From: a virus
Virus record (IMG/VR): IMGVR_UViG_3300048818_000143
Span: 1-64,000 of that record
Length of the DNA: 64,000 nt
Direction: 5' to 3' (one strand)
Shown: positions 1,244 to 44,203 of the stretch, piece after piece
How positions within the stretch are numbered: position 1 is the first letter of the stretch
Layout: each line of letters opens with the position of its first letter
The notes under the pieces: model-generated
Databases searched by the model: none
Seen by the model: only the letters and a program-made list of their open reading frames with translations
Told to the model about the DNA's origin: nothing
Position numbers and translations under genes: made by a program

Positions 1244-1780
1244 TCATGGAAGGACGGTCGGCGTCTCCGTAACTGCTTGCAGCAGATTTCCCGAAACATC
1301 ATAAGCTGAGAAAACCATCGTATGCTGACCTACGGGGGCGAGCGTCCAGAAGAAATAGCCAGTGACAGGATTCACCAGCGGCAATCCGTTGCACATATAG
1401 ACGGCGGTTGGAGCGCCCGATGCGGGAACGCATGGACGGCCGAACCCAGACAGAGGGTTCGCGATAGGATTGCCATTGTCGGTTACTCTCACAGACGCTA
1501 CCAGGTCGAGCCGCAGTATCGTCCATTGGATATAGACCTCAGAGCCACCTGATACAAACTGCTGGTTGGGTATCCATATGTTGCCGAAGACGCTCATTCC
1601 TGACGGAGTAGACGTTGCGGTCGGGATAGCGGGTGTAGCCGTCGGGGCGACTATCGGTGTGCCCGTCGCGGTCGGGGTGGCTCCAGCGGGCTCGCACATG
1701 GCACTCTGCCCAGGTTGGAGCACGACCTGCGCGTGAGCCGTGCTCGCGAGAAGTAGAAATATTGCTATTAGCGTTTTCAT
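1244..1780 (-). CDS. secreted protein with Pro-Thr linker (178 aa)
   Basis: Start chosen at MKTLIAIFLLLASTAHA/QV (Sec-like signal with an AHA site), preceded by GAGG 6 nt upstream. A PT-rich stretch (ATPTATGTPIVAPTATPAIPTATSTP) precedes a Cys-containing beta-rich domain. Confidence 0.6.
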   Translation of the reverse strand: MKTLIAIFLLLASTAHAQVVLQPGQSAMCEPAGATPTATGTPIVAPTATPAIPTATSTPSGMSVFGNIWIPNQQFVSGGSEVYIQWTILRLDLVASVRVTDNGNPIANPLSGFGRPCVPASGAPTAVYMCNGLPLVNPVTGYFFWTLAPVGQHTMVFSAYDVSGNLLQAVTETPTVLP

Positions 1781-1788
1781 GTTAAACC

Positions 1789-3696
1789 TCATGGCCATGG
1801 CCAATGTGACAGGGGCGTTGGCGTGCTGGTCGGGGTCGGGACCACCGGCGTCGGAGTAGGAGTCGGCGTCGGTGTAATTGTTGGCGTTGGAATCGCTGAC
1901 GTAGAAGTTGGGGTTGCCGTCGGTGTTGGTGTCGATGTCGGAGTCGGAGTTGCGGTTGATGTCGGCGTAGGCGTCGCGGTCGGGGTCGGTGTTACGGATG
2001 GCGTCGAATCATTCAGCGGCGCTATTTCCCAAGGATTTATCACTTTCGCCGTGCCGCCTGTTACGGATTGAATCTGCGCCCCCGTGGCATCGTACACCCT
2101 CAATTCGCTGGCGGCCTGCATCGTTACGTAAATATGTCCCTGCCAATCTACCACCACGCCTTCGGGGTCGGTCGTGGATCCCGTATTGATGGTTAGGTCA
2201 GGCGCGACGTTGCAGGTCCCGTGGGTACAGTCGCCATTGTTATATTTCAACACTTTTTGGGTGTTACCGTTGGCGACGTAAATGTTGCCGCTATTGTCCA
2301 ATGCCACTTGAGTCGGTTGCGTAAGCACCGAACCGCCATCGTTGATAATCCAGTTGATGACGCCGGCCATCGTCATCGACAATATCTTCGGCACCGTATA
2401 TCCCGTGACATAAAGGACATTGTTTTTATCAACGGCGATTCCCCCGCATGTCATTCCAATGCTGAAACTGGCATTGGGCACGATATTACCGCCCGCTACT
2501 AGTTGAGCGGCGGTGAACTCCAAAACCTCTTTGCCTGTCGTCACGTCCTGATTGCACGCCCAGAGATTTCCCGCCTGATCAAACGTCAGCCCGATTACTA
2601 CCGAAAGCAGCGTGTTGCCACCTGCAATGGTTACGAGCGGCGATACCGAACCGGAAGCATTGGAGGCATACTTGTATATTGAATCGTTAAGGTACGAGCC
2701 AATCCAGATATTTCCTGATGCGTCGAGCGCGACGCCACCAGCATCGCCGTACGCGGTATCGACAAAACCTTGCGATGGAGCCACATTGCCGGTGGCAGAA
2801 TAAGGCCACATGGACGCCGTGTTGCTCGCTGTGCGATGAATGCCGACCCAGATATTAGTGGCGTTTCCGAACCCTGCGGTTGGCACTGAGAAGGGTGTTG
2901 CCGTTGGCGTCGGGGTTGCGGTCGCCGTAGCAGTAGGAGTTGGCGTGGGAGTAGGCGTTGCGGTTGGAGTGGGCGTTGGGAGCGGTGGTGCGATCGCGAC
3001 TTGCACGCTGGAATATTGAATCGCGCCGCCCGTGAACATAGTCTGACTGCCTGTCGCTGAGCCTGAACTCAGCAGGAAATCCGTAATTGTTCCCGACGAA
3101 TTAGTATTCGGTCCTTGCACAGCAATCGTGCCTTCTGAGGGTGTTGAGAACGTCGCCGACGCCTGATCTGCCACATATATCATTAACAGCATATCGGCTG
3201 CTGTCGTAGGCACGATGCTGTTGCTGGTCTGTGTACTCGAATTCCCTGTGTGCTGGGTACTGAACACGAGAGTCGGCGTCAGGTCTTCGTTCTTATAGGC
3301 GCTAGTCTGATAGGAACCTGTCGGAGACCCTGTCCCAAAAGTAAACGAATGCGAACCGGCACAGTCACTAGACGCACATACATGCCAGAAAACCTCATGC
3401 CGACGGGTCGCACCGGCATACGTTTGATTGAATCCGGCGGTCCATCCGCTCGGCGGCGTGATCGTTCCCGTATTCGAGATGTTCATGTTCACAAAGACGA
3501 TGTCATTGTCGGTGACGCCGCTTCCGAGAGTTACGCTCACTGAGGTAGCGCCACTAATCTCGGCACTGGACGTGCCATTCGTCTCACGGGCAACGGACGC
3601 CCACGCGGGCGAGGCCAGCAGGAACAGCGCGAAGCTAGAAAGGATTACAAGTTTCAAGCCGCCACACCGTTCCGTCGAGTTGGAAGTTAGCGTCAA
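1789..3696 (-). CDS. secreted NHL-repeat (beta-propeller) protein with two Pro-Thr linkers
   Basis: 635-aa ORF with a signal-like N-terminus ..LVILSSFALFLLASPAWA/SV. Repeated NHL/YWTD-type signatures: DASGNIWIG, DQAGNLWAC, DKNNVLYVTG, DNSGNIYVAN, DWQGHIYVT. PT linkers are encoded at nt 2893-2988 and 1792-2010. The N-domain is paralogous to that of 3635-8263. Start is uncertain (ATG 3696 or TTG 3657). Confidence 0.7.
   Translation of the reverse strand: MTLTSNSTERCGGLKLVILSSFALFLLASPAWASVARETNGTSSAEISGATSVSVTLGSGVTDNDIVFVNMNISNTGTITPPSGWTAGFNQTYAGATRRHEVFWHVCASSDCAGSHSFTFGTGSPTGSYQTSAYKNEDLTPTLVFSTQHTGNSSTQTSNSIVPTTAADMLLMIYVADQASATFSTPSEGTIAVQGPNTNSSGTITDFLLSSGSATGSQTMFTGGAIQYSSVQVAIAPPLPTPTPTATPTPTPTPTATATATPTPTATPFSVPTAGFGNATNIWVGIHRTASNTASMWPYSATGNVAPSQGFVDTAYGDAGGVALDASGNIWIGSYLNDSIYKYASNASGSVSPLVTIAGGNTLLSVVIGLTFDQAGNLWACNQDVTTGKEVLEFTAAQLVAGGNIVPNASFSIGMTCGGIAVDKNNVLYVTGYTVPKILSMTMAGVINWIINDGGSVLTQPTQVALDNSGNIYVANGNTQKVLKYNNGDCTHGTCNVAPDLTINTGSTTDPEGVVVDWQGHIYVTMQAASELRVYDATGAQIQSVTGGTAKVINPWEIAPLNDSTPSVTPTPTATPTPTSTATPTPTSTPTPTATPTSTSAIPTPTITPTPTPTPTPVVPTPTSTPTPLSHWPWP
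1792..2010 (-). repeat. coding low-complexity Pro-Thr repeat (C-terminal ~73 aa of the NHL protein)
   Basis: The translation is almost pure (P-T)n with S/A/I/V interruptions. Similar PT linkers are encoded at 2893-2988 and 7496-7579. Confidence 0.8.
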
Positions 3697-6600
3697 GATC
3701 CGATGGTGGACTCTGCGTTACCCCCAGCGTGCAGTTAGTTCCCACCCCAACCACTGTGCAGGAACCGTTCTGTGTCGAGAACGGCCCTATCGTACCTGAC
3801 GGCAGCGTGATCGTCCCGCCGCTCGAAGTCTGATGAATGTGCCACGTCATGATTTCGCCGCTTGCGCAGGCGCACGGCAGGGTCATCAGCGTCGGACTCG
3901 CGGTATTGGCGAAGGTCTGAACATCAACCCAAGGAGCGGTAGCCGAATTACAGACTCCGACCGGTGTAGTTCCCGTAAGCGCATGGGTCGCAGGCAAAGA
4001 AGTCCATGCCGCCACTGGCGGAGCGTTCGCGGTGCTGGTAGCGACTGGAACTTGCCCTATGACCGGCGCGACAGCCGGAGCAATAAATGCGTAGGCTCCG
4101 GTCTCAATCTGCAACGTGGTAGCCGCGAGGTTCCCGTTGTAATCGATGTTGAATTTCGTGTTGGTATGCGTGGAGTCCTGAAGCCTGATGAACTGGCCGG
4201 TCGGGGTCGCGAGGGCATACCCATCGAACATATCGATCCCCGCACCGCTCTGGGTGTTCGCCGAGCCGTTGAGCAGGTAGTTGCCAAGCGCGGTTGAACC
4301 TCCCTGTTCAACCCACACCGACCCATTGCAATAGATAGGACAATGCGTCGAGCCGCCGGTCGTACAGGTTGCGCCGTTCGCGCACGTTGCGTTGCAATCG
4401 GTAGCCACACCCTCCTGCGATTCATTCGTGGAGTTGCAGGCAGGGGCGCTGCCGATGACACCTTGGTAGAGAACCGCCATAGGCCCTGAAAAGGACGGAG
4501 GTCTGATGACGGTCGCACCCGCTATCGCCAGCGGCTCTATCCAAAAGGAGCCCGAGGTGACACCGTTGCCGAAAAAGCCTTTATTCGACGCCACACCGCC
4601 GTCGCAATCCACATTAAATGGTGTCGCAAACGAGGGGGTGTAGAGCCGCAGGAACGAGCCTGGGCTGCCGAGGCATTGCCCCGTAACCATCACGTTACCC
4701 GAGGCGAACTGCTCAAGGTCAAGATTCTCGCCATTCACGAACTGGCCCGGTTCGATACCCGCCGGTCCAATCGCAAGGGGAGTTATTTGAGAGCCGTTGT
4801 AAGTGATTTTATTCCCGTTTGTAACCGGCGCATTATTGAAGATGTTGCTTAGGTTGGTGGCGTCTATGTCGCTGTAGAAGATACCCGGCTCGATCACGGT
4901 GTTATTGTATGCCTGATCGTGATTGATCGTGATGCGAGCGCCGCCAAAGCCCGCCGACGCCAACCCACCGCCAATCAAGTGAAAATCGGTATGCGAGCCA
5001 TTGTTGAATAGTATCGAATCGTTATCGAGGTTCAGCCCTACGGTCGCATCGTAGTTGCGCACCACCACCGCATCACCGACAAAGGCGACCGGCGTTCCGT
5101 TACTCACGGCTTCCAAGTAGCTGTTATTTATCGACTCCGACTGCGCACCGCTTATCGCAACCATCATCGCGGTCGGGTCTGTGGCATTAACCATTTCAAC
5201 GTCTAGGCCCTTGATTTGGCCGTTGATCATGCCGTTGAATGCGTCCACACCGATATGTCCGACGCCCGCACAAGTCAGGGTGTCAAAAGTCAGATCGTTG
5301 TCGTACCCACCCGTCCCGTTAGTCGGAGCGTCGAAGTAGAAACAGGTGTGCGTACCCTGAATCGACATCTTACGATGTGTAGCGTTCTGCTCGAATACCG
5401 AGACACCGATGCCGCAGTTGCCCGCGCCTACGTGGTCAGTGTTGAGTCCCGATTGATAAGCCCACCCACCCGAAACACCAGGCGTCGAGTCACCGATCGC
5501 GAGGCATTCCGTAGTCGGCGTTATCGTTCCGCCAGTGCCGGTGCCCATGTCGGAGAACGGACCCATCGGGAAGGTCAGATGCGTCGAGTCAACAACCTTC
5601 GCGAGCACAGTGCGGTTGTAGTTGCCATCTTTGATGGTGCCGAAGCCCGAACCCGCTCCAAGGCCAGTGTTCTGACTGATCCATGTGATATGCGTTGAGT
5701 CCTCGGTGTTGACTATCCAGCCGTTGCCCGCAGGACTGTTGTAGCCACTAGGGGTATTGCCCGCCGAGATGATCTGGTCGCCAGCGAGCAGGCCGTGAGG
5801 AGCAGAGCAAGTTGCGGTGACGATATTGGGCTGCGTGACTGCCGCGGTGGCGAGCACCTGCCCTGTGCCGCCAGTGCATCCGGTGAAGCAGTTGCCCGAG
5901 CCCCCCGTGCAGGCCGCCCCGCTGGTGACGCCAGTGCAATAAATTGGATCGGTCCCGAACGACGCCAAGGTGGCGATGTAGATCGGCATGCTGCTACCGG
6001 TGAGAAAACCAGTCGTAGACGCCACGTTCACGATGGCGCTCGGGAGGCTGGTCGTGAGCGATAGCGTCGTGGATCCCGCCGATTCACTGAGCGCGGTCGG
6101 GGTGCAGGCGTTCGCACCCGCATTTCCATTCACCGTCGTACCGACACCGGCAATGACGATAGGGAGAGCGCCACTCGATACGGGCAGAGGGCTCGCTACC
6201 GTGGCCGTCGTGGTGCGGTCGCCTCCCGTAGAGGCTTGAATCAGCGAGGTGACGTTCACTGACGAGGCGTCGGTTCCGCTGCCGAGGAAGTAGCAGCCCT
6301 CTATGTCGCCGCCTTCCTGGCACGACCCCGGCGTAGCTCCATTCGGTGAGCACCCAAAGCGATTATTGATGCCGTAGGTATTGGTCGAGTAGATGACCGT
6401 CCCTTCGACATCAGATTGGAAGAGCGACGTATTCGCGGGAATGACTCCCGTCCCACCGTTGCAATTATTTAGCTGGCCCGCAGTAGGAGCACCGCCGCAA
6501 AAGATTTTCTGACCTGTACCCGCGAACACGATAGGGATACTCGCGTTGGCTTTGAATCCGGTGCTCAAGATCACCGTCACCGAAAAGTTGGTGCCGCCGA

Positions 6601-8263
6601 GAGTATTCGACCCCGTGGTGGTCGTAACCGCTGGCGCAAAGGGTGTCGTGGTCTCTCCGAAATGAGCGCCCCAATTAGGGCTGACCCAAGAGCCACACTG
6701 GAGTTTACCGTTAGTCGGCCAGTTGGTGTTGGGCACGACATAACAACCGCCCGGCGGTGTCGGAACATCCACCTCCTGTCCCGGAAGTCTCATCGCTGCC
6801 GCTAAATCGAAAGCAGGTTGATCGTTCGTAACGCAATCGCCCTTCGCGCCGAGAGTTACAACATTGATGGCGTTGTTCGAAGGAAGGGACGGCACCCACT
6901 GTGTTCCGTTGAATACCCATGTATCACCAGTGACCGGTGGCGTCGCCGATATCGGGGTTCCTTGAAATCCGACTACGGTACAAAGCCCGGGAACAGCAGT
7001 TGAGCACGAGATATCTCCCGTCAGCGTATAGAACGCGGGATCGAGCGGCCCTTGAATCAGGATCTGTCCCGTAGTTCCCGGATTCACGCCCGGTATCGCT
7101 GTGCCGTTGAAATTGATCGTACTGATGCCGATCCCGCCTAGCGGTGGATTTGTGATGGAGATGCCGCTTGATCCTGGACCTGTTGCCGCAACTCCCGTCA
7201 CCAGCGAGGCCGGCCCATTGTTTGCCGCCACGAGCTGCGAGAGATTCGCGCTAGTCGCATTCGGTATCTGGATGCGCACAGGTTGCCCGCTGCCCACCGT
7301 CAGGAAAACTACGAGTCCTTCCGGTACGTTTGTGGGGTTGGGCAGATTGCCGAAAGCGTCAGTGTTGACGGAGAACTTTCCCGCGGGAGTCAGCGAGCCG
7401 CCTTGATTCTGCAGCGAGTAAGTATCGAATACGACACGCTGGCTAATAGCCGGGCTGCCGTTTATTTTGAGCACGTTGCCGCCGACGTTGCAGACCGGAT
7501 TCGGGACTGGCGTCGGCGTTGCTGTCACCGTAGGAGTAGAGGTCGTTGTCGGGGTCGGAGTGACAGTCGGCGTCGGGCCGGTCGCCAAGAGCTCGATCTG
7601 CTCCGCGGCCCAATTCACGTTGCCCGAGGTGCCTGCATTGATATTGTTGGTATAAGTCCCCGAAAAGGGAATCGGCACGTATTCCTGCGCGACACCCGCA
7701 TTCGGCGTCGCCTGAGTATTCGTCACGTTGAACGCGGTCGTGAAAGTCATTGTGAGCGCCTGGTTGGTCCCCGCGCTCCATCCGAAATCCACCAGCAGCA
7801 TCGAGTTCGCGCCGGTTGTCGTGATTGGCGGCGCCGTCAAAGTATTACCCGCCGTTCCAAAATCGTTGGTCCCCGCGACTGCGCCCACTCCTACCGCGCC
7901 GGCGTATGTCGTGACGCCGCAAGCCTCGCCCGCATGACCTCCCGTAAAGGTGTAACTCGCAGGCTCGCTGCTCGCGACTCGATAGCAGAGTATCGATTGC
8001 ACGTTGGCGCTGGTTGATTGATCCTGGCGGACGAAGCTCCATCCCGTGGGACAATTCTGTGTCGGCGAACTGATGCTTTGGTCGACGTAGTGCCAGACCA
8101 TCAGGTTGCCGTTGGTGGTTCCAGTCGGCACGTTGCACGAGATCGGGGATGACGCCGCTGTGTTGTGCGCCGCGGCTACAAACGTGATCGCGGCATCGGC
8201 GCGCGCCGCGAAAAGTAGCAAGAGCGCGGCTATTAGGCTTGAGATTCTTCTTTTGTTTCGCAT
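3635..8263 (-). CDS. giant secreted beta-helix protein, tailspike/depolymerase-like (pectate-lyase superfamily motif)
   Basis: Uninterrupted 4.6-kb ORF; start taken at MRNKRRISSLIAALLLLFAARADA/AITF (Sec-like signal). PT linker at nt 7496-7579. The motif INVVTLGAKGDCVTNDQPAFDLA (nt ~6800-6868) matches the characteristic N-terminus of Pectate_lyase_3-type right-handed beta-helix domains of phage tailspikes. Gly/Thr/Asn-rich throughout. Confidence 0.75.
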   Translation of the reverse strand: MRNKRRISSLIAALLLLFAARADAAITFVAAAHNTAASSPISCNVPTGTTNGNLMVWHYVDQSISSPTQNCPTGWSFVRQDQSTSANVQSILCYRVASSEPASYTFTGGHAGEACGVTTYAGAVGVGAVAGTNDFGTAGNTLTAPPITTTGANSMLLVDFGWSAGTNQALTMTFTTAFNVTNTQATPNAGVAQEYVPIPFSGTYTNNINAGTSGNVNWAAEQIELLATGPTPTVTPTPTTTSTPTVTATPTPVPNPVCNVGGNVLKINGSPAISQRVVFDTYSLQNQGGSLTPAGKFSVNTDAFGNLPNPTNVPEGLVVFLTVGSGQPVRIQIPNATSANLSQLVAANNGPASLVTGVAATGPGSSGISITNPPLGGIGISTINFNGTAIPGVNPGTTGQILIQGPLDPAFYTLTGDISCSTAVPGLCTVVGFQGTPISATPPVTGDTWVFNGTQWVPSLPSNNAINVVTLGAKGDCVTNDQPAFDLAAAMRLPGQEVDVPTPPGGCYVVPNTNWPTNGKLQCGSWVSPNWGAHFGETTTPFAPAVTTTTGSNTLGGTNFSVTVILSTGFKANASIPIVFAGTGQKIFCGGAPTAGQLNNCNGGTGVIPANTSLFQSDVEGTVIYSTNTYGINNRFGCSPNGATPGSCQEGGDIEGCYFLGSGTDASSVNVTSLIQASTGGDRTTTATVASPLPVSSGALPIVIAGVGTTVNGNAGANACTPTALSESAGSTTLSLTTSLPSAIVNVASTTGFLTGSSMPIYIATLASFGTDPIYCTGVTSGAACTGGSGNCFTGCTGGTGQVLATAAVTQPNIVTATCSAPHGLLAGDQIISAGNTPSGYNSPAGNGWIVNTEDSTHITWISQNTGLGAGSGFGTIKDGNYNRTVLAKVVDSTHLTFPMGPFSDMGTGTGGTITPTTECLAIGDSTPGVSGGWAYQSGLNTDHVGAGNCGIGVSVFEQNATHRKMSIQGTHTCFYFDAPTNGTGGYDNDLTFDTLTCAGVGHIGVDAFNGMINGQIKGLDVEMVNATDPTAMMVAISGAQSESINNSYLEAVSNGTPVAFVGDAVVVRNYDATVGLNLDNDSILFNNGSHTDFHLIGGGLASAGFGGARITINHDQAYNNTVIEPGIFYSDIDATNLSNIFNNAPVTNGNKITYNGSQITPLAIGPAGIEPGQFVNGENLDLEQFASGNVMVTGQCLGSPGSFLRLYTPSFATPFNVDCDGGVASNKGFFGNGVTSGSFWIEPLAIAGATVIRPPSFSGPMAVLYQGVIGSAPACNSTNESQEGVATDCNATCANGATCTTGGSTHCPIYCNGSVWVEQGGSTALGNYLLNGSANTQSGAGIDMFDGYALATPTGQFIRLQDSTHTNTKFNIDYNGNLAATTLQIETGAYAFIAPAVAPVIGQVPVATSTANAPPVAAWTSLPATHALTGTTPVGVCNSATAPWVDVQTFANTASPTLMTLPCACASGEIMTWHIHQTSSGGTITLPSGTIGPFSTQNGSCTVVGVGTNCTLGVTQSPPSDLDANFQLDGTVWRLETCNPF

Positions 8264-11900: not shown

Positions 11901-11901
11901 C

Positions 11902-16440: not shown

Positions 16441-16487
16441 TTAGATGAACCCCTTAATAGCCGCGCTCTTGCTCTCCAGCACGCTCA

Positions 16488-17627: not shown

Positions 17628-17628
17628 A

Positions 17629-18300: not shown

Positions 18301-18348
18301 TATCCCATCTCCACGAGATTGAGCATTTCGGCTATGTGTATCATAATC

Positions 18349-20863: not shown

Positions 20864-21615
20864 CAGCCGTGCGTGCCATAAACCGTCTTCGTGACCGACG
20901 CCCCGACACTCGATCCGCTCTTAAAACTCGCAGCCTTGACCGACGCCGAGGTGCAGAAGTCGCCCGTAGGTTTGAGTGTTGCCTTTCCGTGCAGGTCAAT
21001 AACATTCTCGTTGTTAGATGCAAACCAAGATGGATCGGTATAGAGGCCCGTGTGCAACATCCCCGCGTTACCGCCGAGTTGCAGCCCTACAGTGATAGGG
21101 CGCCCCCACCCGTTGATTAACAAACCGTAGGTCGTGTTCCACATTCCGTTCAAAGGCTGATCGACGCCGCTGTAATCTTCTACGTCGATTTCGTGCCCGA
21201 CCAGCAACGAAGGTTGCGTCGCGTAGGCATCTGAGATGAGCGCCCAGCAAAGCGCACCGTGCGCGTAACACGCAGACTGAATGAAAGCTCCGAGCGCCGC
21301 TCTTTCGATACCTGGAAAGACTGAAGAGTCGAAGGTTGCCGTCGATACAAATAGGCCGCCTTTCTCATAGCCTGTCGGTGAGTTTGTCGAGTTGATCAGA
21401 TTCTGAATCTCGAATCCCCACTCGTTCCCTAGTCCATTCATCTCAATGAAGAAGCGATTGTGCGCGGAATCCCATGCGGGCGGGTTGAACGGTGCTGCGT
21501 TAGTATCGTTTACCTCTATCCCTGCGGCAGAACCGCTTTGAAGCAGGAACGGTGCGGCCCATCCTATCGAAGGCACCAAGAGCAGCGCGAGGCAGGATAT
21601 GGCGGCGCTTTTCAT
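20815..21615 (-). CDS. secreted Cys-containing protein (266 aa)
   Basis: Start at MKSAAISCLALLLVPSIGWA/AP (Sec-like), 1 nt after the upstream stop. Six cysteines, including a C-terminal ..WCTEIFTAGLLTGGTC. Confidence 0.6.
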   Translation of the reverse strand: MKSAAISCLALLLVPSIGWAAPFLLQSGSAAGIEVNDTNAAPFNPPAWDSAHNRFFIEMNGLGNEWGFEIQNLINSTNSPTGYEKGGLFVSTATFDSSVFPGIERAALGAFIQSACYAHGALCWALISDAYATQPSLLVGHEIDVEDYSGVDQPLNGMWNTTYGLLINGWGRPITVGLQLGGNAGMLHTGLYTDPSWFASNNENVIDLHGKATLKPTGDFCTSASVKAASFKSGSSVGASVTKTVYGTHGWCTEIFTAGLLTGGTC

Positions 21616-21616
21616 C

Positions 21617-22387
21617 TTACATGCATACCCAATTGAATTTATCATTAGCCGCGCTGACGAAATCAATGACACAGGTTGAGGTTCCGCACGCGCCAACACT
21701 CACAGTCTTTGGAGCAATGTTAGCCCCAGCGTCATCGAATACACAAAATGGCGATTGCCCCCAGACGCCAGCCGCCGACCAAGTGATCGTACAGGTCGTA
21801 GCGAGCGCGGTCTGGGTAGTAAGTTGGCCACGATTATTAGTGCTACCTGTTGTGACCGATGAGCCAGCACCGTTGCAACCGGCCGACAGGGTCGGGGCGG
21901 CGCCGCCAGTAGACGAAAAGGTGTTGCCATTGCCGAGCGTCACGTCACCCGCGGCGCTGATGAGTATGCGCTGCGTGTTGTTGGTATCGAAAGTCATCGT
22001 GGCGCTGGCTACTTCATCGAACGCCATGCCACCAGTGGCGTTGGACCCGAAGAAGATATTATCCCCGACTCCGGTACTGTTCAGTTGCATCAGGAAATAG
22101 TGGTTAGCGTCGTTCAGGAACTCGAAGCCAGTCTGCGCTGCGTTTCCGTTGCTGAGATTTTGCGCAAGCAGAAAGGTCACGGAGGAATTGACGTTAGCGG
22201 ACTGTTGTATCGAGCCCGACTGCGCAGGCGCCGCTATCCCAACCCCGATCGAATTACAATTCGGTGTAACGCCGCCCGGACAATTCGCGCTGTTGGTTGC
22301 GATGGCCGCGTCTCCAGCGTGAACTACCTGCCACGCGGAGGCCCCGATCAGCAGACCGGCCATGAGCGCCGCTATAATCCGATTCAT
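21617..22387 (-). CDS. secreted fibre-like protein (256 aa)
   Basis: Signal-like MNRIIAALMAGLLIGASAWQVVHA/GD. Gly/Asn/Thr-rich fibre-like middle (SIGVGIAAPAQSGSI...) and a Cys-rich C-terminal domain. Confidence 0.6.
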   Translation of the reverse strand: MNRIIAALMAGLLIGASAWQVVHAGDAAIATNSANCPGGVTPNCNSIGVGIAAPAQSGSIQQSANVNSSVTFLLAQNLSNGNAAQTGFEFLNDANHYFLMQLNSTGVGDNIFFGSNATGGMAFDEVASATMTFDTNNTQRILISAAGDVTLGNGNTFSSTGGAAPTLSAGCNGAGSSVTTGSTNNRGQLTTQTALATTCTITWSAAGVWGQSPFCVFDDAGANIAPKTVSVGACGTSTCVIDFVSAANDKFNWVCM

Positions 22388-24012
22388 TTGAAACTACTCT
22401 CGAACCAACAATTCGCGCTCGCCGTCCACGACCCACACGAGGTCGAAGAACAAAGCCACACTATCCCATTTGAGAAATTCATGGGCGGATCGATGCCCTC
22501 TATCACACTCTGCTTGGACCCTATCGTAAAGCAGTGCTCTGGGGCGACCGCGGTCGCCGTCGCTCCCGGCGTTCCCGCCGTGTTCATCGCCATCGCCCAA
22601 AGCTGAGTCGTGCCCTCATTCGTAACCGTATAGTGATAGAGATTGCCCGCGCTGGTTTTCGCTACCCAGCTATTCACGTTGTCTGCGCTGGTCGTCGGGA
22701 GCACCGCTACCGGTGCCGTTCCTGTCGGATTCGGAATCATCGCCACGGGCGTAATCAGCAAGACTGCTGGCGTATTGTTGATAGATACCGAACCTTGAAT
22801 CGCCGGCGTGTTATTTATCGAGACGCTGCCTTGAATCGCAGGGGTATTGTTAATCGAAACCGACCCCTGGATTGCAGGAGTATTCTGAATCCATGCCGCC
22901 GCGTTGATCGTCGAGGTCGCCACAAAGACCGTGTGCGCCCCGACCTGCACCGTTCCTTGGACCCAAGTCGTAGGAACCGTCACGAACACCGTGCCCGGCT
23001 GCACTCCTATCGTGGGCAGCGAAACGGGGATGGTCGCACCTGGGTAAGTCAGCGCACTGATCGTGCCCTGTACCCACGTTGTAGGAACAGTAACCACTAC
23101 CGTGCCCGGCTGTACCCCAATGGTCGGGACAGAAACAGCGATGGTAGAAAGCGCCTGCACGTTCACCGTGGCCTGCGAAGCGTTCACATTCATGAACATA
23201 TTGGCCGATCCCGTGGCTATGGGGATTGGTGACTGACTCGGATTGTTGACGAAAACGGTGCCCCCGCCTCCGCTTCCCGCCGGAACGCCCGTCACGTAAA
23301 CGGTATTCTGCACCCAAGCTGCCACATTCAAAGTCGAAGTCGCCACTTGGACGGTATTTTGGACCGCTACACCCGGCGTGTTCTTCACGTTCACGTCGTA
23401 ACTTTGAGTCGGAATGGCGATGATGCCAGCGGTATTTATGGCGACACCTATCGTTGGCACCGACACTGGAATCGTCGCACCGGCCTGCACGTTCACGAAA
23501 AAGTTTGCTGAGCCCGTCGCTATAGGAATCGGCGACTGGTTGGGGTTGTTTACAAAGACGGTTCCCCCGCTCACTGCACCAGCGACGATATTGACGTTCA
23601 CGGTCCCTGTCACGATCATCGAGGGCATCGAAACTACCGCGACACCCGCCGTATTACTGATAAAAACCGTTCCACCACCACCGCCGCCTGCTGGAACTCC
23701 TGTCACATAGACTGTGTTCTGTACGAGCACGCCTGGAGTGTTCTGAATTCCTACGCTGAAAGTCCCTGAAGTCGGATAGACTCCCTGCCCTCCGGTCGCA
23801 GGAATGTAGCCTTGCGCTAAGACTTCAGCTTCGTGATGATCGAACAGTTCTTTGAACGCAGACCACCAACTCCGATCGTGCGCGAGCATGGATACCGAGC
23901 TTGGCCCTCGTCCGCCTCCTTCCATTGGATCTGGCGCGTTCGACATCGAAAGCACCAAGAAGACCAGCAGCAGCGTTAAGGTCGGTATGAGATATTTCGC
24001 GTGCGACTTCAT
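22384..24012 (-). CDS. repeat-rich fibre-like protein with N-terminal signal-anchor (542 aa)
   Basis: Start [23 protein letters not shown] forms an ATGA overlap with the upstream stop. Internal duplicated modules are present (QNTVYVTGVPAG.GGGGTVF, SPIPIATGSAN.F.NV, PTIGVQPGTV.VTVPTTWVQGT). There are three perfect TPAIQGSVSINN repeats and a Cys-rich C-terminus. Confidence 0.65.
   Translation of the reverse strand: MKSHAKYLIPTLTLLLVFLVLSMSNAPDPMEGGGRGPSSVSMLAHDRSWWSAFKELFDHHEAEVLAQGYIPATGGQGVYPTSGTFSVGIQNTPGVLVQNTVYVTGVPAGGGGGGTVFISNTAGVAVVSMPSMIVTGTVNVNIVAGAVSGGTVFVNNPNQSPIPIATGSANFFVNVQAGATIPVSVPTIGVAINTAGIIAIPTQSYDVNVKNTPGVAVQNTVQVATSTLNVAAWVQNTVYVTGVPAGSGGGGTVFVNNPSQSPIPIATGSANMFMNVNASQATVNVQALSTIAVSVPTIGVQPGTVVVTVPTTWVQGTISALTYPGATIPVSLPTIGVQPGTVFVTVPTTWVQGTVQVGAHTVFVATSTINAAAWIQNTPAIQGSVSINNTPAIQGSVSINNTPAIQGSVSINNTPAVLLITPVAMIPNPTGTAPVAVLPTTSADNVNSWVAKTSAGNLYHYTVTNEGTTQLWAMAMNTAGTPGATATAVAPEHCFTIGSKQSVIEGIDPPMNFSNGIVWLCSSTSCGSWTASANCWFESSFK
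22774..22881 (-). repeat. 3 x 36-nt tandem coding repeat (TPAIQGSVSINN x3), identical in protein but diverged at synonymous sites
   Basis: Units are at 22774-22809, 22810-22845 and 22846-22881. All three translate to the same 12 aa, while every one of the 12 codon positions uses at least two different synonymous codons across the units. Confidence 0.9.
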
Positions 24013-24872
24013 CAAATATCCCACGCCCCGGCTGCGCCATCCAAGAAGTCGAGCTCCATATACCCGCGCGTCATAATAGCCGCGCTATTCGCGCCATCGA
24101 TCGTGTCGGTTCCATTGGGCGTCGCTTGAACAAAGTGCGCGCCGTTATCGATGCGCTTGATAGACACCTTAAAACCGCTCCCGATTGCGGCAGGGAAGTT
24201 CACTATGAAGTCCGCGCCCGCGGGCGTCGGGACTCGAAGCCAGAGGTCTGCTGTTAATGGAGCGACTGTGTAGGGCGTCTGCCCGGTCGTAAGAGTAATA
24301 ACCGTCCGGCCTGTGCCCGACGATCCCGCTGGTCCCTGCGGCCCTATTGCACCTTGCGGACCTGCTGGCCCTTGCGCGCCATCTTTGCCGGCCGCCCCGG
24401 CTGGTCCCGCTGGTCCGACAGGCCCGGGCGTTCCTTGGCCCGTTTCGGGAAACCATTTCTCCTCGATCTGATCGTAGGTCAGGGTTATTAGCTGCCCCGG
24501 CGTAAATGGCCCGGCGGCGAGCCCTATGTTTCCGCCCGTCCCCAAACTGAAAGCGCCGTCTGCTACGAGAAAAACTGGTCCTGAAAACTGGCTCGGCGGC
24601 AGAATCTCCGTCACCGTCCCCGTGCCCGTTACGTGGTGGTTCGGGTTCGTGAGCATCAGTGTGCCCGATCTCGAATCCAGCGCATCGCCGAAGGTCTGGA
24701 CCTGTGAATTTATTTGGTCCTGGATATTCCCGAAGATCGTATTTAGGCTGTTCGTCAGGTCGCGCGCCCAAGTGAAAAGCACGCGCACGGCCTCTCGTAG
24801 CCCCGCGTACTTCGAAGTCTCGCCCGAAGTCGGCGGATTGGGAATCGAGATGTTTGCGAGCGGCTGATTCAT
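24012..24872 (-). CDS. collagen-like tail fibre protein (286 aa)
   Basis: About 14 uninterrupted G-X-Y triplets ([42 protein letters not shown]) encoded at nt ~24309-24440, flanked by globular domains. The overlapping 235-aa ORF in another frame is Arg-rich noise. Confidence 0.7.
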
Positions 24873-24879
24873 TCATAGG

Positions 24880-25368
24880 TCACTGTTGGACGTAGGTCAG
24901 GACTCCCTGCACATTCGCCGAGCCACCCGTGATCGTCAGGCATAGCGCCTGCGGCAGTGAATGCGTCGCCACCGAGAGCGGCACCGCTATTCCAGGCTGA
25001 TTGATTTCCAGAAACGGCGCGTTCATCGCTCCGGTCAAGGCGGTCGGGGTGCTACACGTATCTCCCGCATAGCCAAGTTGAATCCCCGGCGTCGATCCCG
25101 TTTCCGTCACGAAAAGCCCGCACACGTAAATCTTCTGCTGTGGCACGATGCCCGTATTCGGATTCGGCGAAGGCGTCGCCACCGCCAACAGCACCGTTGC
25201 CGAAGTGACTGATATCGGCGTCGAGTTCTTGTAGACCTGCGGATTGAGGCAGGGTTCCTGCGACGGGTTGAATTGCCCGGCGCCGAGCCCCACAAGGAAG
25301 ATCGCGACTAAGCCGAAAAGCGCCGCTATTCTAAGTTCAATTTTCTCCACTGAAAGAAACCTCCGCAT
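24880..25368 (-). CDS. small membrane-anchored/secreted Cys-containing protein, paralog family member (162 aa)
   Basis: Hydrophobic N-terminus (IAALFGLVAIFLVGLGAG). Shares the pattern PC...K...SAT...[KQ][KQ]IY[VI]C...TP..L.Y....C.T...C....TYV with 27931-28440. Confidence 0.55.
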   Translation of the reverse strand: MRRFLSVEKIELRIAALFGLVAIFLVGLGAGQFNPSQEPCLNPQVYKNSTPISVTSATVLLAVATPSPNPNTGIVPQQKIYVCGLFVTETGSTPGIQLGYAGDTCSTPTALTGAMNAPFLEINQPGIAVPLSVATHSLPQALCLTITGGSANVQGVLTYVQQ

Positions 25369-26896
25369 CTATGTCGGCCAACTCCCCGTCTGCCAGCCAC
25401 ATCATTTTGAGCCGCTGCAATCGATCTGTGCTCACGAAATCGAAGTATCCCGAATCGCTGATATCGACGTTTCCCTGCTTCGCGATCGGCGTCTGTCCTG
25501 CCACGTAGGTACTGAGAACCGTCAGCTTGGCTGGCGAGGCCAGCGGCTGCCCCTGCGGGTACTGATTAAATCCTGGGCGCGCGCGCGACAGCGAATAGAG
25601 ACTCACCTTGTCGCCGATATCGCCCGTAATTATGAACGCTGGAATGTTCGAGATATCGGCGCCATTGAGCGCCTGCAGAACGTGGCTCGTGTCGACGTAG
25701 CCCGAAAGCCCAATCGAACTCCCCCCAAAGAACGGCGCTCCGTAAACTCCCCTCGGATCCGGGGAGCCTGGAATGTTCACATACTTGACCCAATAATTCT
25801 CGAATTCCGCCCAAGTGTAGGCCCACGATTTGGGAATCTGCCCGACCAGCGGCGTGTCGATGGTATTGCGCCCATGCAGCCATTTTCCGGTCGCCAGCGA
25901 GAGCGACAAATACGAATCTAAAGTTCCCGCCGGGTTCGCATTCACCGATGGATACCAGAAGATCACCTGGTTCCTCGGCAAGTCCCATTGCAGGAAGATG
26001 CTCGACGAATAATTCTGGTCGAGATCCCCGTTGCCCTGGTAGCTCCCGAAAAACCAGCGCGAGAGATTATTCGGAATCGTGCTGAGGCTGTAGCCGTCGA
26101 ACGTGTAGAAGTCGCTAGGACCGACGAATATCTGGATAGGCCCGCCACCGAAAATTGTCGGTCCGATCACGCTGATAACGGAATTCGGCCCCGGCGTCCC
26201 TATCTTGTCCGAAACCTTGCCGAAATTCCAAAAGAACGGTGGACTCCCCGACCACTGGCCCGAGTAAAGCGCATTCGCCTTGTAGAGAGTGATGCCAGAG
26301 CGCAGCGCCTTCGCTGCCGTAATTATGCCAGGCGTCGAGGTCAGCGCTCCAGTTACCGTGATGGTCGCCAACGAGGGCGTCCAAATCGTATCGTTGAAGG
26401 TGTAAACGAACTCGTTCGAGTCGGCGAGGATCGCGAACAGCGTGAAGTCCGTCGCTTCCACGATCGAAGATACCGGCGGCATCCCCGGCAGCGCTTCGAA
26501 GTTGTTCCCGCTGCTCGATACTTGAATCGGGTCAACGCCATTGGTCGCCAGTAGGTCATTCCCGTAGACCGTGAAGTACCACGTGTTTGTAAGATTGCGC
26601 AGCGTGAGATTCTGATTTACGAGATTGCCGCCTGGCGTCTGGTAGAGCTGATTCGCCGTCGCCAGCACAAGCACAAACTCGCCGCCCAATGGCGTCGCAA
26701 ACGCGCCCGTAACTTTGAAGGGCAACGCGGTCATCACCGGCAATGGTGACGGCATGTTCCTAAAACCGCCGCGAGTCGAGTAACACCATTGCGAATCAGT
26801 CAAAATCGCTTGGACTGCGGGCGGAATCCGCTCACCTAAAAGCCCTGCTATTACGGGATCTAGATCGGGTGCGAAATCTCCGAGCACCAAGCGCAT
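25337..26896 (-). CDS. tail structural protein (nozzle / tail-tubular-B-like by position, 519 aa)
   Basis: Start at MRLVLGDFAPDLDP just after the upstream stop. A large soluble beta-rich protein following an adaptor-like gene. No specific motif. Confidence 0.5.
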   Translation of the reverse strand: MRLVLGDFAPDLDPVIAGLLGERIPPAVQAILTDSQWCYSTRGGFRNMPSPLPVMTALPFKVTGAFATPLGGEFVLVLATANQLYQTPGGNLVNQNLTLRNLTNTWYFTVYGNDLLATNGVDPIQVSSSGNNFEALPGMPPVSSIVEATDFTLFAILADSNEFVYTFNDTIWTPSLATITVTGALTSTPGIITAAKALRSGITLYKANALYSGQWSGSPPFFWNFGKVSDKIGTPGPNSVISVIGPTIFGGGPIQIFVGPSDFYTFDGYSLSTIPNNLSRWFFGSYQGNGDLDQNYSSSIFLQWDLPRNQVIFWYPSVNANPAGTLDSYLSLSLATGKWLHGRNTIDTPLVGQIPKSWAYTWAEFENYWVKYVNIPGSPDPRGVYGAPFFGGSSIGLSGYVDTSHVLQALNGADISNIPAFIITGDIGDKVSLYSLSRARPGFNQYPQGQPLASPAKLTVLSTYVAGQTPIAKQGNVDISDSGYFDFVSTDRLQRLKMMWLADGELADIDAEVSFSGEN

Positions 26897-26897
26897 T

Positions 26898-27728
26898 TTA
26901 CAAATATCCTCGGAGAACAAGCGGCTTATCGAGGTCCAGTGTGGCCTTCATCAGACGGTATTTTTCCCTGTCTACTATCCCTCGAAATGGCGTTTTCTTT
27001 GGTTCCGGCCAATTGATGTACGTGTCGGCGAGCTCCAGTACCGTCGCCGCGATGATCAACTTGCTCGCGTCTTCCGTCCAGAAATTATCGTCTGCGTCAA
27101 TCAAGGGCGCGGCCGGCGCCGCGTTGCCGGTTATCTCCAAGGGGTACGCCTGGTCCGGAGTCAGGTAGAGCCGCAGCCGCGTTCCGAACTGCGCATATGC
27201 GTATGGCGGCCCTGCGTTCGGTGGGCTTAGCGGATCCGCCAAAAGCACGTCGTTGTAGTTGGCCTTATCAAGATCGAGCCAGACACCGCCTCCATATGTG
27301 ATTGTAGTGCCCGATGGGACCAGATCGATGCCGCCCGTGCATCCAGTCAGGTTGAGGCCCGAAATGCCCGTATAGCTCACCGGGAAGCCCAGAATGAGTA
27401 CTGTCCCCTTGAGAGGGAAGTTCGTTACAGATGAAAGCGGAATCGTCGCGGCTGGCAGAGTAACCGATGCCGTCGTCTGCGCCTGAAGTCCGTTGAGGCC
27501 ACCCAACAGAAACCGCACCATCTTGACGTTGCGAATTCCATTGGGGAGGTCGAGCCACGCCGTTCCGGGCGTGCAAACTAGCGATGTGTCGGTTACGTCA
27601 GAGCTGTACCAGAAGAAGTTCTGGAAGAACTGGATTCGGTCCTGAGACTCATCGTAGATGATCTGGGAGAGGTCGGTTCGGTTCCCGCATCGCTGAGCGA
27701 CTCGCGCTTGAAGGGTCGCGTAATCCAT
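26898..27728 (-). CDS. head-tail adaptor / tail-tubular-A-like protein (276 aa)
   Basis: The N-terminal MDYATLQARVAQRCGNRTDL and the later YLTPDQAYPLEITG pattern resemble phage adaptor/neck families. Position is downstream of the capsid block. Confidence 0.45.
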   Translation of the reverse strand: MDYATLQARVAQRCGNRTDLSQIIYDESQDRIQFFQNFFWYSSDVTDTSLVCTPGTAWLDLPNGIRNVKMVRFLLGGLNGLQAQTTASVTLPAATIPLSSVTNFPLKGTVLILGFPVSYTGISGLNLTGCTGGIDLVPSGTTITYGGGVWLDLDKANYNDVLLADPLSPPNAGPPYAYAQFGTRLRLYLTPDQAYPLEITGNAAPAAPLIDADDNFWTEDASKLIIAATVLELADTYINWPEPKKTPFRGIVDREKYRLMKATLDLDKPLVLRGYL

Positions 27729-27745
27729 TAACCGGCCTCATGGCG

Positions 27746-27919: not shown

Positions 27920-27930
27920 TACGGCACCTC

Positions 27931-28440
27931 TTACGGGACGATGACGTAGGTGATCGTGGCGCCAAGCACGTTGTAGCCCTGATAGCAGACATCGATACCC
28001 GGGCTCGCCGCCGCCGCTGGAACCGGTCCATCGACCATCGTGTTGCCCGGTCCGTACATCGCGCCACCGTTGGCTCCGTAAATGCCAAGCTGCGCCTGTC
28101 CGAGCGCCGGTACGACCGACCCGTAGGGGCTGCTCGTCGCACATGGAGTGCCCGCGACCTGCACGCCATAGGAAAGCGTGAGCGCCGGCGTCGCGCCGTT
28201 GCTGTTGAAAGGCTGCGCCACTTCGACGCTACAGATGTAAATCTGCTTGCCTAGCACACCCGGTATCGCGGTGAACGTCGCGCTTGCTCCAGGGGCCGCG
28301 AGGAATTTGCTTCGCTTCGGGTAGATGGCGCATGGGTCCATCGCCGTCTGCGCAAACACAAAACCGGCGAAGCCGAGCATGCACGCGACTACCAGAAGCC
28401 TCGCCAGATTCGCCCGGATCGATCCTTTTTCTGCTTTCAT
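27931..28440 (-). CDS. small secreted Cys-containing protein, paralog family member (169 aa)
   Basis: Start at MKAEKGSIRANLARLLVVACMLGFAGFVFA/QT with a GAAGGA RBS. Paralogous pattern shared with 24880-25368. Confidence 0.6.
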   Translation of the reverse strand: MKAEKGSIRANLARLLVVACMLGFAGFVFAQTAMDPCAIYPKRSKFLAAPGASATFTAIPGVLGKQIYICSVEVAQPFNSNGATPALTLSYGVQVAGTPCATSSPYGSVVPALGQAQLGIYGANGGAMYGPGNTMVDGPVPAAAASPGIDVCYQGYNVLGATITYVIVP

Positions 28441-28457
28441 TTTTCCTTCACCCGCCC

Positions 28458-28835
28458 CTAGAAACTGCACACTGAGACGCTCTGGCTAGAGCAACCCATG
28501 TCGACCGGCACGATGCAGTAGACCGCGCCCGAGGGAACAATCGGATTGGTCTTCGCCGCATGCTCAGTTGGCAAAATCGGCACAGTCGCCGCAGTCGGCA
28601 CCAGCGTTCCTGAATAAATGGTCGCCGCGGTCACGTCTATGTCGCAATAGGCCGGACACGAAGTCCCGCCGACGAAATAGAATAGCGGTCCACGGCCCGT
28701 CCCACCTGCGGCAAAATTGGCCGCCACAAGCTGAGTCGAAGAAGTCGTAATAGTCGCGGTCGAACAGATGGCATGCGCCAGATTCGGCACGGCCAGCATT
28801 ACCGCGAATAGCGCTGCTACTAGGTATTTTCTCAT
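28458..28835 (-). CDS. small secreted Cys-rich protein (125 aa)
   Basis: Signal MRKYLVAALFAVMLAVPNLAHA/IC, with a GGAGG RBS 7 nt upstream. Seven Cys in the mature part. Loosely resembles the two paralogs above. Confidence 0.6.
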   Translation of the reverse strand: MRKYLVAALFAVMLAVPNLAHAICSTATITTSSTQLVAANFAAGGTGRGPLFYFVGGTSCPAYCDIDVTAATIYSGTLVPTAATVPILPTEHAAKTNPIVPSGAVYCIVPVDMGCSSQSVSVCSF

Positions 28836-44194: not shown

Positions 44195-44203
44195 ATAAGT
44201 TAG

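Follow-up and report, generated by a model that had tools for sequence, protein, structure and literature searches.

The morphogenesis of tailed phages takes place, in the textbook account, entirely in the cytoplasm. To our knowledge, the phage proteins that use the Sec pathway are a few small lysis, exclusion and moron proteins, together with the coat proteins of filamentous phages. The former include lambda Lom and Bor, Cor, T5 Llp, the spanins and the secreted or signal-arrest-release (SAR) endolysins, which carry a signal peptide, a lipobox or an anchor and in some cases are encoded in or near tail operons. As for the latter, pIII and pVIII of the filamentous phage Ff are virion proteins with cleavable Sec-type signal peptides, and pIII further combines disulfide-bonded domains, low-complexity linkers and an adhesin function. 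Here we describe a set of nine proteins with predicted Sec signal peptides in the late operon of an uncultured, tailed, podovirus-type soil phage of about 65 kb. The phage is represented by positions 1 to 64,000 of the IMG/VR record IMGVR_UViG_3300048818_000143 (hereafter the window, the whole 64,000-nucleotide stretch that was analysed), which takes in all but about 1.1 kb of a 65,121-bp contig assembled from public sequencing data (Logan SRR35912848_10005). A preliminary description of the window had remarked that export signals are unexpected inside a tailed-phage structural operon and that the mature parts look extracytoplasmic, and both remarks hold.

The nine open reading frames (ORFs), here called A to I, all lie on the minus strand of the late operon and translate as the preliminary description had quoted them. 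Within the first 35 or so residues each has a positively charged n-region, an h-region of 7-15 residues and a polar c-region, the n-h-c layout that had been claimed. Seven of them carry a signal peptide with a well-formed site: A (3635..8263, 1542 aa; MRNKRRISSLIAALLLLFAARADA/AI), B (1789..3657, 622 aa; MKLVILSSFALFLLASPAWA/SV), C (1244..1780, 178 aa; MKTLIAIFLLLASTAHA/QV), D (20815..21615, 266 aa; MKSAAISCLALLLVPSIGWA/AP), E (21617..22387, 256 aa; MNRIIAALMAGLLIGASAWQVVHA/GD), F (27931..28440, 169 aa; MKAEKGSIRANLARLLVVACMLGFAGFVFA/QT) and G (28458..28835, 125 aa; MRKYLVAALFAVMLAVPNLAHA/IC). Their predicted cleavage sites read ADA/A, AWA/S, AHA/Q, GWA/A, VHA/G, VFA/Q and AHA/I, with no proline at +1. 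The remaining two, H (22384..24012, 542 aa) and I (24880..25368, 162 aa), had been described as signal-anchor-like. This fits H, whose N-terminal signal-anchor or signal-peptide segment is anchor-like with a weak cleavage site. I has a GLGA/G site; because its close homologue in a related contig (L079) has a classical n-region, MQVKTRIAALFGL...GLGA/GQ, in a signal peptide ending MQVKTRIAALFGLAAIFLVGLGA/GQ, I looks cleavable rather than merely anchored.

Signal peptides were scored with a home-made n-h-c/AxA heuristic calibrated on two control podophages with related capsids. It flags 9 of the 28 late-operon genes; of the remaining 35 genes of the window it picks out 1, and of the 127 genes of the controls 6 (Fisher p = 1.4e-4). 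The flagged control proteins are small lysis-region or moron proteins, among them PagP of BcepIL02, a genuine outer-membrane protein, plus one weak false positive, a tail fibre of BcepIL02; the controls show the exported-accessory class named above, and the heuristic errs now and then. The start codons that include the signal peptides look real by their sequence context: strong Shine-Dalgarno sequences stand before those of C (GAGG), F (GAAGGA) and G (GGAGGA), and the ATG of E overlaps the stop of H in an ATGA coupling. The start of B had been placed at TTG 3696, which falls inside the end of A; the in-frame TTG at 3657, giving M-KLVILSSFALFLLASPAWA/SV, is most likely the true one. A lipobox ([LVI][ASTVI][GAS]C), the signal for signal peptidase (SPase) II, is present in none of the nine. 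Export by the twin-arginine translocation (Tat) pathway was considered and rejected, as the S/T-R-R-x-F-L-K consensus is missing and only A has an RR pair (NKRRISSL), with a strongly hydrophobic h-region. Taken together, the N-termini are very probably genuine Sec-type signal peptides, mostly cleavable by SPase I, and the proteins genuine Sec substrates.

The homologues of these proteins make the same point over a wider range of sequences. E consists of a variable N-terminal part and a conserved, Cys-containing C-terminal beta-domain of about 100 aa, which is all that its 16 homologues share, and each full-length homologue has its own divergent signal peptide, mostly AxA followed by Q. In that domain C199, C215 and C255 are invariant and C234 and C239 are jointly lost in four sequences, a paired loss that is disulfide-like behaviour. 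The family sits in the structural modules of three relatives (L002, L003 and L005; the L-numbered relatives are all metagenomic contigs, some with frameshifts), and collagen-like repeats are present in some of its members. A scan of IMG/VR with the E family found a single locus, and that relative also has a signal peptide; the 185,579 reference genomes of GTDB yielded none. One gene caller began E at an internal Met (P0001).

The mature domain of F begins at a DPC motif, holds four invariant cysteines and ends in ...TYVIVP; I, with 4 Cys and the ending LTYVQQ, belongs to the same family, and many long members match both. Weak similarity between F and I is also the only paralogy among the nine at BLAST level. 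All 12 close members of the F/I family have a signal peptide and the four invariant cysteines. In the alignment of the 12 F homologues, mean identity is 35% over the signal-peptide region and 59% over the mature domain, maximum 10-residue hydropathy is 2.6-3.1, 10 of the 12 have V, A or T at -3 and A at -1, and no conserved internal start codon follows the signal peptide. An exhaustive profile search gave 126 cluster representatives. Among those that stand alone, 72 of 73 have a signal-peptide-like or hydrophobic N-terminus; the other 53 are longer proteins, reaching 2092 aa, that end in the domain, and such an N-terminus occurs in 43. Five members (P0107, P0110, P0115, P0117 and P0120) carry two or three tandem F/I domains after one signal peptide. 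The domain was also considered as a C-terminal sorting domain, of the type IX secretion system (T9SS) or another type, which was rejected since most members stand alone and none matches Por_Secre_tail. In about 90 divergent homologues the layout of a signal peptide persists although its residues drift. Almost every homologue, in the E family as among the F/I members, has such an N-terminus; the preliminary description had suggested this comparison.

The mature parts differ from the rest of the late operon in composition as well. Cysteine makes up 2.16% of the mature parts of the nine and 0.65% of the other late proteins, a 3.3-fold difference (p = 6e-12) that bears out the enrichment noted earlier, and the median content of Lys, Arg, Asp and Glu is fourfold lower (5.8% versus 24.5%). 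This Cys-rich, charge-poor composition fits folding in an oxidising, extracytoplasmic compartment. The giant 1512-aa internal-type protein and the next three proteins (16488-19113; ejection-like, Gly/Gln-rich) have no cysteine at all, and the zero-Cys proteins of 11902-19113 on the minus strand stand in sharp contrast to the adjacent exported ones. Linkers rich in proline and threonine (PT linkers), also claimed in the preliminary description, are real in A, B and C, with 16-17 P/T per 20-aa window. In A, the signal peptide is followed by an N-domain of about 200 aa, a PT linker at about residues 231-255 and a Cys-rich region of about 1290 aa with 39 Cys. In B, an N-domain and a PT linker precede an NHL beta-propeller, and the C-terminus is a PT tail; Tandem Repeats Finder (TRF) detects the PT repeats. 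C goes from its signal peptide into a PT-rich stretch, D has 5 Cys in its mature part, G has 6 Cys in 103 mature residues, and H forms a repetitive beta-rich shaft (NTPAIQGSVSI three times, and other repeats, which TRF does not detect at the DNA level) with a Cys-containing C-terminus. An N-domain common to A, B and others was sought, and only that of B was linked to other proteins, in L078 and L010. Together the mature parts amount to about 3,650 residues, roughly a fifth of the genome. Searches of Pfam, PHROG and NCBIfam with the nine returned one match, the NHL repeats of B (PF01436, 1.9e-11), which the preliminary description had already named. The 'beta-helix depolymerase motif' once proposed for A finds no such support: A matches nothing in Pfam, PHROG, NCBIfam, PDB or INPHARED. 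PDB sequence and profile searches with A, D and the glycosyltransferase discussed below, and with the family alignments of E, F and that enzyme, gave nothing meaningful.

Could proteins of this kind belong to the virion? The genes themselves are built into the structural operon. The virion genes for an SU10-type adaptor (26898-27728, minus strand) and a nozzle-like protein (25337-26920, minus strand; phrog_3287), a pair that spans 25337..27728, lie between signal-peptide genes. F is just upstream of the adaptor, and I, H, E and D occupy the fibre slot between the nozzle and ejection genes. Junctions from G to the ejection genes range from -32 to +17 nt, promoter- and terminator-like sites in the late region show no excess over shuffled sequence, and the GC content of the signal-peptide genes is uniform with the rest of the phage. 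F, G and the glycosyltransferase are present group-wide, and E and D turn over. This is not the pattern of moron insertions of the Lom/Bor type.

The order G-F-adaptor-nozzle is kept in eight contigs (the window, L078, L079/L080, L081, L082, L083 and L010), with G homologues that have a signal peptide at the same position in L078, L080, L081, L082 and L010. Relative to L010, F is 41% identical, compared with 28% for the capsid, 27% for the nozzle, 26% for the portal and 23% for the adaptor. F and G are therefore taken as core genes, on their conserved synteny and on the conservation of F beyond that of the capsid. The fibre slot behaves differently. L079 is near-identical to the window phage (adaptor 99.6%, F 100% identical), and there the signal-anchor and first 242 aa of H are 89% identical, the C-terminal part of H is swapped and ends in an I-like domain, and E and D are replaced by an unrelated 262-aa signal-peptide protein. 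In L007, H and I are fused in one protein. Such pairing of a constant proximal part with an interchangeable distal part is a hallmark of receptor-binding fibres. The slot also encodes a collagen-like tail fibre protein ("fib", 24012..24872, minus strand; PHROG tail-fibre families and Pfam Collagen) with no signal peptide and no cysteine, a candidate for a stub that would be built in the cytoplasm and attached to the virion. Its N-terminal 146 aa are 91% conserved in L079, and its homologue in L010 has 138 aa and consists of the N-part only. That stub is the sole fibre homologue without a signal peptide in L010, where all six large genes after the nozzle have signal peptides. In L003, which belongs to a different capsid family, the structural module encodes at least five Cys-rich proteins that start with a signal peptide.

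Next to D, which is immediately upstream of it, lies a gene that the preliminary description had not mentioned (19640..20812, minus strand). Its likely start, TTG 20812, is 2 nt past the stop of D and gives a protein of about 390 aa within an ORF of 407 aa that is open to 20863. The protein is, by structure prediction, a GT-C-fold integral-membrane glycosyltransferase, polytopic and with a long first loop on the extracytoplasmic side. Its AlphaFold2 (AF2) model is confident (pLDDT 90.3, pTM 0.90), and the top 11 Foldseek matches in the PDB are all GT-C enzymes, including ArnT (E 8e-4, TMq 0.51), PglB, PIG-U, PimE, ALG3, AglB, AftA, Pmt4 and EmbC. Sequence searches of Pfam, NCBIfam, PHROG and PDB gave no match, and its 68 homologues have no Pfam domain either. 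Two acidic residues that might include the catalytic one of that loop, E43 (in NEH) and E65, are invariant in the 10 closest members and are not among the residues listed as invariant across 40. In BFVD, Nitrosopumilus spindle-shaped viruses supply the entries closest to the model, proteins with no characterised function (E 7e-4, TMq 0.53), along with one uncultured siphovirus; no characterised phage GtrC resembling it was found in INPHARED or BFVD. Enzymes with this fold take sugars from lipid-phosphate donors and work on the extracytoplasmic side of the membrane. Of the contigs that carry F, each of the six with enough sequence for a judgement (the window, L078, L079, L010, L081 and L082) has the gene, and so do L007 and a phage whose connector is T7-like. 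The gene immediately ahead of it in the window, L079 and L007 codes for a signal-peptide protein, a different and non-homologous one in each case. In L078 (a European Nucleotide Archive (ENA) contig), the GT-C gene at 9555-10714 is broken into ORFs of 154 and 237 aa and few ORFs of the fibre region are intact; these splits are probably assembly indel errors, not biology.

Cellular homologues of the GT-C protein reach 45% identity and come mostly from Candidatus Binataceae/Binatus and related soil metagenome-assembled genomes (MAGs). In eight Binatota MAGs (L031, L034, L037, L045, L048, L051, L055 and L058) the gene is translationally coupled to that of a conserved lipoprotein of about 237 aa (MIKRALMGAAAVFIVAC/NSGP), and in Eremiobacterota-type genomes (L006 and L011) it follows a 230-aa signal-peptide protein with a Pro/Thr-rich tail. 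One homologue adjoins a gene of the TMEM260_N family, presumably a family of protein O-mannosyltransferases, and membrane proteins with 7-13 transmembrane segments often flank these loci, that gene among them. The cellular loci may represent an uncharacterised bacterial envelope glycosylation locus. Apart from one GT2 and one NHL match, the 66 loci match no other protein of the window.

On the plus strand, a cassette at 32.2-35.7 kb adds further sugar-handling genes. An NAD-dependent nucleotide-sugar epimerase/dehydratase (33993..35081; Pfam Epimerase 4e-40, PHROG 540 1.5e-38) is followed by a GtrB-like GT2, a putative polyprenol-phosphate sugar synthase (35078..35725; Pfam Glycos_transf_2 2e-8, PHROG 841 'GtrB-like O-antigen conversion' 1.8e-16), whose nearest NCBIfam models, all below their cutoffs, are a Dol-P hexose transferase, AglJ, PgfS and ArnC. 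Three membrane ORFs in different frames (32639-33247, 33327-33506 and 33673-33996), with a weak PIG-U match, look like a second GT-C-like protein in pieces; homologous split ORFs occur in L007 (12013-13123), and they are either a conserved split gene or a shared pseudogene. The GT-C protein, the GT2 and the epimerase would form a lipid-carrier pathway acting on the periplasmic face, and its link to the exported proteins is suggestive. Glycosylation of the PT-linker proteins by this pathway is plausible, if tentative.

These observations can be brought together in one explanation. Late proteins of the window phage and of related uncultured soil phages would cross the inner membrane by Sec and would very likely fold oxidatively in the periplasm, forming disulfides. 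Starting from the epimerase, the GtrB-like GT2 would load a sugar onto polyprenol phosphate and the GT-C enzyme would transfer it at the periplasmic face, and the Pro/Thr-rich linkers would probably be glycosylated by this phage-encoded pathway. The exported modules would be fibre-, adhesin- or enzyme-like: H as a shaft with I as its tip, E, D, A and B (in the last two of which a PT linker joins an N-domain to a large C-domain), and finally F and G, both small core proteins. At lysis they would become extracellular, and some, acting in host recognition or decoration, would dock on particles built in the cytoplasm from capsid, portal, adaptor, nozzle and fib stub. Docking would use the fib stub or the capsid surface; it would take place when holin lesions open the cytoplasm to the periplasm, or afterwards in the lysate. 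T4 and phage L are well-known cases in which completed particles accept fibres and decoration proteins in vitro. As the best overall account, an exported suite with periplasmic maturation and preferably some docking, this explanation has in our view an even chance of being right. Given export, the chances that at least some of the proteins dock on virions are roughly even or a little lower. Its most specific version, two-compartment virion assembly with Sec-exported, disulfide-bonded, O-glycosylated modules docking at lysis, possibly in a Binatota host, has to be called doubtful.

Several points weigh against this explanation. We know of no tailed-phage virion that takes up periplasmic proteins, and docking would need a short window of time around lysis. 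Searches of Pfam, PHROG, NCBIfam, PDB and INPHARED matched none of the nine to a known tail-fibre, tailspike or decoration family, and no virion-attachment domain was identified in them. The AF2 model of E is poor (pLDDT 56), and its fibre- or lectin-like Foldseek matches are not significant. Clear PT linkers are missing from D, E, F, G, H and I. The place of the GT-C gene varies: L010 has it on the other strand, and in L081 and L082 it lies ahead of the capsid gene. About ten long F-domain proteins lack a signal peptide; some are probably truncated gene calls, because their N-parts resemble relatives that have one, and PHROG and Pfam scans of ten long F-domain proteins for a canonical tail-fibre N-domain gave no match. 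Finally, what the sequences show is the signal-peptide layout and its retention across families, the cysteine and composition signature, the integration in the operon, the GT-C fold and the co-occurrence of that gene; that the proteins are exported, cleaved, disulfide-bonded and glycosylated, and that they join virions, we infer.

How do other explanations fare on the same evidence? The preliminary description had offered two, secreted non-virion proteins expressed with the late genes, or a new structural role of the hydrophobic N-termini themselves. Real export, the core of the former, is borne out by signal peptides that are conserved while diverging, the paired loss of cysteines, the composition and the co-occurring GT-C gene; 'non-virion' is a separate matter, and gene position, fibre-like modularity, collagen-like repeats and the signal peptides of the L010 fibre slot leave virion association open and arguably favoured. 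Exported proteins with tasks off the virion would act in the periplasm, at the cell surface or in the lysate; they could exclude superinfecting phages, mask receptors, stop progeny from being wasted on debris, degrade or bind extracellular polysaccharide (EPS) or capsule as soluble public-good enzymes stabilised by disulfides and glycans, or assist lysis, a secreted endolysin included. All the phage Sec substrates generally known are non-virion proteins of this sort, such as Lom, Bor, Cor, Llp, spanins and secreted or SAR endolysins, and A and B are laid out like secreted carbohydrate-active enzymes, with an N-domain, a PT linker and a large domain such as the NHL propeller. Pfam matches for endolysin, holin, integrase or repressor were found in no scanned ORF of the window; with no recognisable cytoplasmic endolysin there, one exported protein has room to be a secreted lysin. 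The conservation of F beyond that of the capsid would fit binding of a conserved host molecule, and the missing similarity to known virion proteins points the same way as the well-supported export signals. Yet nine proteins with their thousands of mature residues go far beyond the needs of known exclusion or lysis functions. Even in very divergent phages F and G stay in the one slot that lies between the head genes and the adaptor; H has a repetitive shaft and a fibre-like mosaic of proximal and distal parts; E-family members carry collagen-like repeats; and for L010, as far as its fibre slot is sequenced, the 138-aa stub would be the one plausible receptor-binding protein to remain. A wholly non-virion role is the main rival, and we lean clearly away from it. 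The other alternative of the preliminary description does worse. If the hydrophobic N-termini were uncleaved tethers on the cytoplasmic face, assembly or propeptide segments, or artefacts of start-codon choice, this would suit the long hydrophobic regions and weak cleavage sites of H and, in the window, I, the internal Met chosen for P0001 and the occasional false positives of the heuristic, such as the BcepIL02 fibre. It sits badly with the starts of C, E, F and G, where a strong Shine-Dalgarno sequence or an overlap with a stop codon marks the start codon that takes in the signal peptide, with an n-h-c layout and small -3/-1 residues kept in some 90 homologues despite sequence drift, with cysteine enrichment and pair co-loss that point to an oxidising compartment, and with the lack of a conserved internal start after the signal peptide. 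We consider it very improbable.

The glycosylation genes have a rival reading of their own, ordinary Gtr-type conversion of host surface polysaccharide (lipopolysaccharide (LPS) or EPS) that lies near signal-peptide genes by coincidence, in which case the exported proteins would not be its acceptors. This is a serious alternative, because the GT2 is GtrB-like, as its match to PHROG 841 indicates, and because the position and strand of the GT-C gene vary, with the opposite strand used in L010. The GT2 and the epimerase lie on the opposite strand in the manner of a moron cassette, and GtrC-type enzymes are generally known to be GT-C-like. Against it stand the presence of the GT-C gene in each related phage with enough sequence, as a core rather than an accessory gene, its place directly after non-homologous signal-peptide genes in three phages, the coupling of its cellular homologues to a lipoprotein or signal-peptide protein and their TMEM260-type neighbour, and its lack of similarity to characterised phage GtrC in the databases searched. 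GtrA, integrase and repressor were all missing among the scanned ORFs, which did not cover every small one. On balance its chances fall clearly short of even. A different view would make the genes host-derived cargo, morons recently acquired by one phage with no role in its biology. The GT-C protein does have cellular homologues in Binatota and Eremiobacterota MAGs, and the F/I family is large, with most members of unknown origin. But the GC content matches the rest of the phage, operon coupling is tight, many phage lineages have kept the genes, no reference genome matched the E family, and the cellular GT-C loci share next to nothing else with the window. Cargo of this kind is very improbable. 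Of the readings weighed, the export of a late-gene suite, matured in the periplasm and in part docked on virions, is the one we prefer.

What host would provide such a periplasm? The signal peptides are of Gram-negative type, and the host is likely a soil diderm; one gene, that of the GT-C protein, points tentatively to Binatota through its sequence. Eremiobacterota were considered as the best host lead and set aside, as the Binatota homologues of GT-C are closer. One species of Eremiobacterota is in culture, and its envelope is the typical one of an inner membrane, a peptidoglycan layer and an outer membrane (PMC9758169). The literature searched held nothing on phages of Binatota. The sole signal-peptide-like N-terminus outside the late operon belongs to a lipobox protein (LGLSAC; 62753-63166, minus strand; MTLTKETLMKLTTLAIAALALGLSAC...) with no family match; it may be an o-spanin and, if so, would speak for a diderm host.

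The remainder of the window is that of a DNA-packaging tailed phage, with a terminase (PHROG 38), a P22-like portal (38987-41176; Pfam 1.3e-56), a major head protein (30766-31986; PHROG 334), and a DNA-ejection protein in addition to the giant internal-type protein. It has no close relative in culture: the nearest capsid among isolated phages is 36% identical, megablast and tblastn searches of 50,697 isolated phages with a 22-kb region, A, H and the GT-C protein gave no match, and scans of IMG/VR with the nozzle protein and with the F family found none. Between F and the adaptor lies a 57-aa ORF (27746-27919, minus strand) that is kept in L078 and L079; its counterpart in L081 has 116 aa and an N-terminal transmembrane segment. 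Just upstream of A are an acyl carrier protein (ACP)-like protein (9580-9882, minus strand; Pfam PP-binding, 1e-4) and then a 248-aa protein (8233-8979, minus strand), and the same pair, with a 35%-identical homologue of the latter, stands ahead of signal-peptide genes in L083 (5248-6222); it may be another modification function. Also inside the late operon, the protein of 8924-9667 (minus strand) has a motif that looks LAGLIDADG-like by eye (WAAGFLEGEGTF) and no Pfam match, and is a probable mobile endonuclease, as are an HNH_3 protein and a DUF559 protein (59724-60221, plus strand, and 56245-56661, minus strand). The structural modules of L081 and L083 are also broken by HNH-like ORFs. A tRNA-Thr(CGT) lies beside a tRNA-Met(CAT) at 44122-44275 on the minus strand.

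If the explanation given above is true, it would be the first periplasmic maturation pathway for structural proteins of a tailed phage and the first GT-C-dependent glycosylation of a phage virion. Were the proteins on virions, receptor-binding modules would be folded oxidatively and glycosylated before docking, a new assembly route that would account for the way in which soil phages might come by highly stable adhesins that resist proteases; were they not, the phage would still have an unusually large arsenal of secreted late-gene products. Either way, the glycosylation genes and the lineage-wide nature of the trait extend the preliminary description. Three new protein families come out of the comparison: the E C-terminal domain, the F/I 'DPC...TYVQQ' domain with its 126 representatives, and a GT-C family that has no Pfam model. 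The analysis also offers an initial view of phages from little-studied soil phyla, and carries a warning for annotation pipelines that a signal peptide does not exclude a fibre-slot gene.

Set beside known systems, the locus resembles several in part. Ff has exported, disulfide-bonded virion proteins, but it assembles at the membrane and extrudes through it, whereas the capsid, portal, adaptor and nozzle of the window phage are those of a DNA-packaging tailed phage with cytoplasmic assembly, and no relationship of sequence or fold was found between them. Phages with Lom, Bor, Cor or Llp have one to three small, non-fibre-like proteins of this class per genome, often with their own promoters; the window phage has nine, of up to 1542 aa, coupled within the late operon and made up of the core genes F and G and mosaic fibre-like genes. 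The fibres and spikes of T4 (gp37/gp38), K1-5 and CBA120 share the conserved proximal and exchangeable distal parts, the tip domain that may stand alone or be fused, and the collagen-like repeats; they differ in having no signal peptides and being assembled in the cytoplasm, and no homology was detected. Development of a tail outside the cell is known in general terms from the Acidianus two-tailed virus, which is archaeal and has an unrelated morphogenesis. For glycosylation, the GtrABC seroconversion systems of P22 and Shigella phages likewise pair a GtrB-like GT2 with a polytopic transferase on the periplasmic face; here no GtrA or integrase was found, and the GT-C gene is a core gene beside genes of exported proteins. 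The protein O-mannosyltransferase (PMT)/TMEM260 enzymes, actinobacterial Pmt and Streptococcus mutans Pgf combine a GT2-made lipid-phosphate donor, an epimerase and a GT-C enzyme with Thr/Pro-rich, Sec-exported targets, a likeness echoed by PgfS among the NCBIfam matches of the GT2, Pmt4 among the Foldseek matches and the TMEM260_N neighbour, although the matches here are at fold level or below cutoffs and clear PT linkers are confined to A, B and C. Mycobacteriophages also have glycosylated virions, made by cytoplasmic glycosyltransferases and not by a periplasmic GT-C enzyme. In the literature searched, Sec signals on the fibre-slot proteins of tailed phages had no prior description, and none of the nearest analogues unites the structural operon of a tailed phage with a core GT-C gene and an extensive, conserved set of exported proteins that resemble fibres. 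Sec-exported phage proteins as such are of a known kind; the assembly of a virion from two compartments would, if true, be categorically new.

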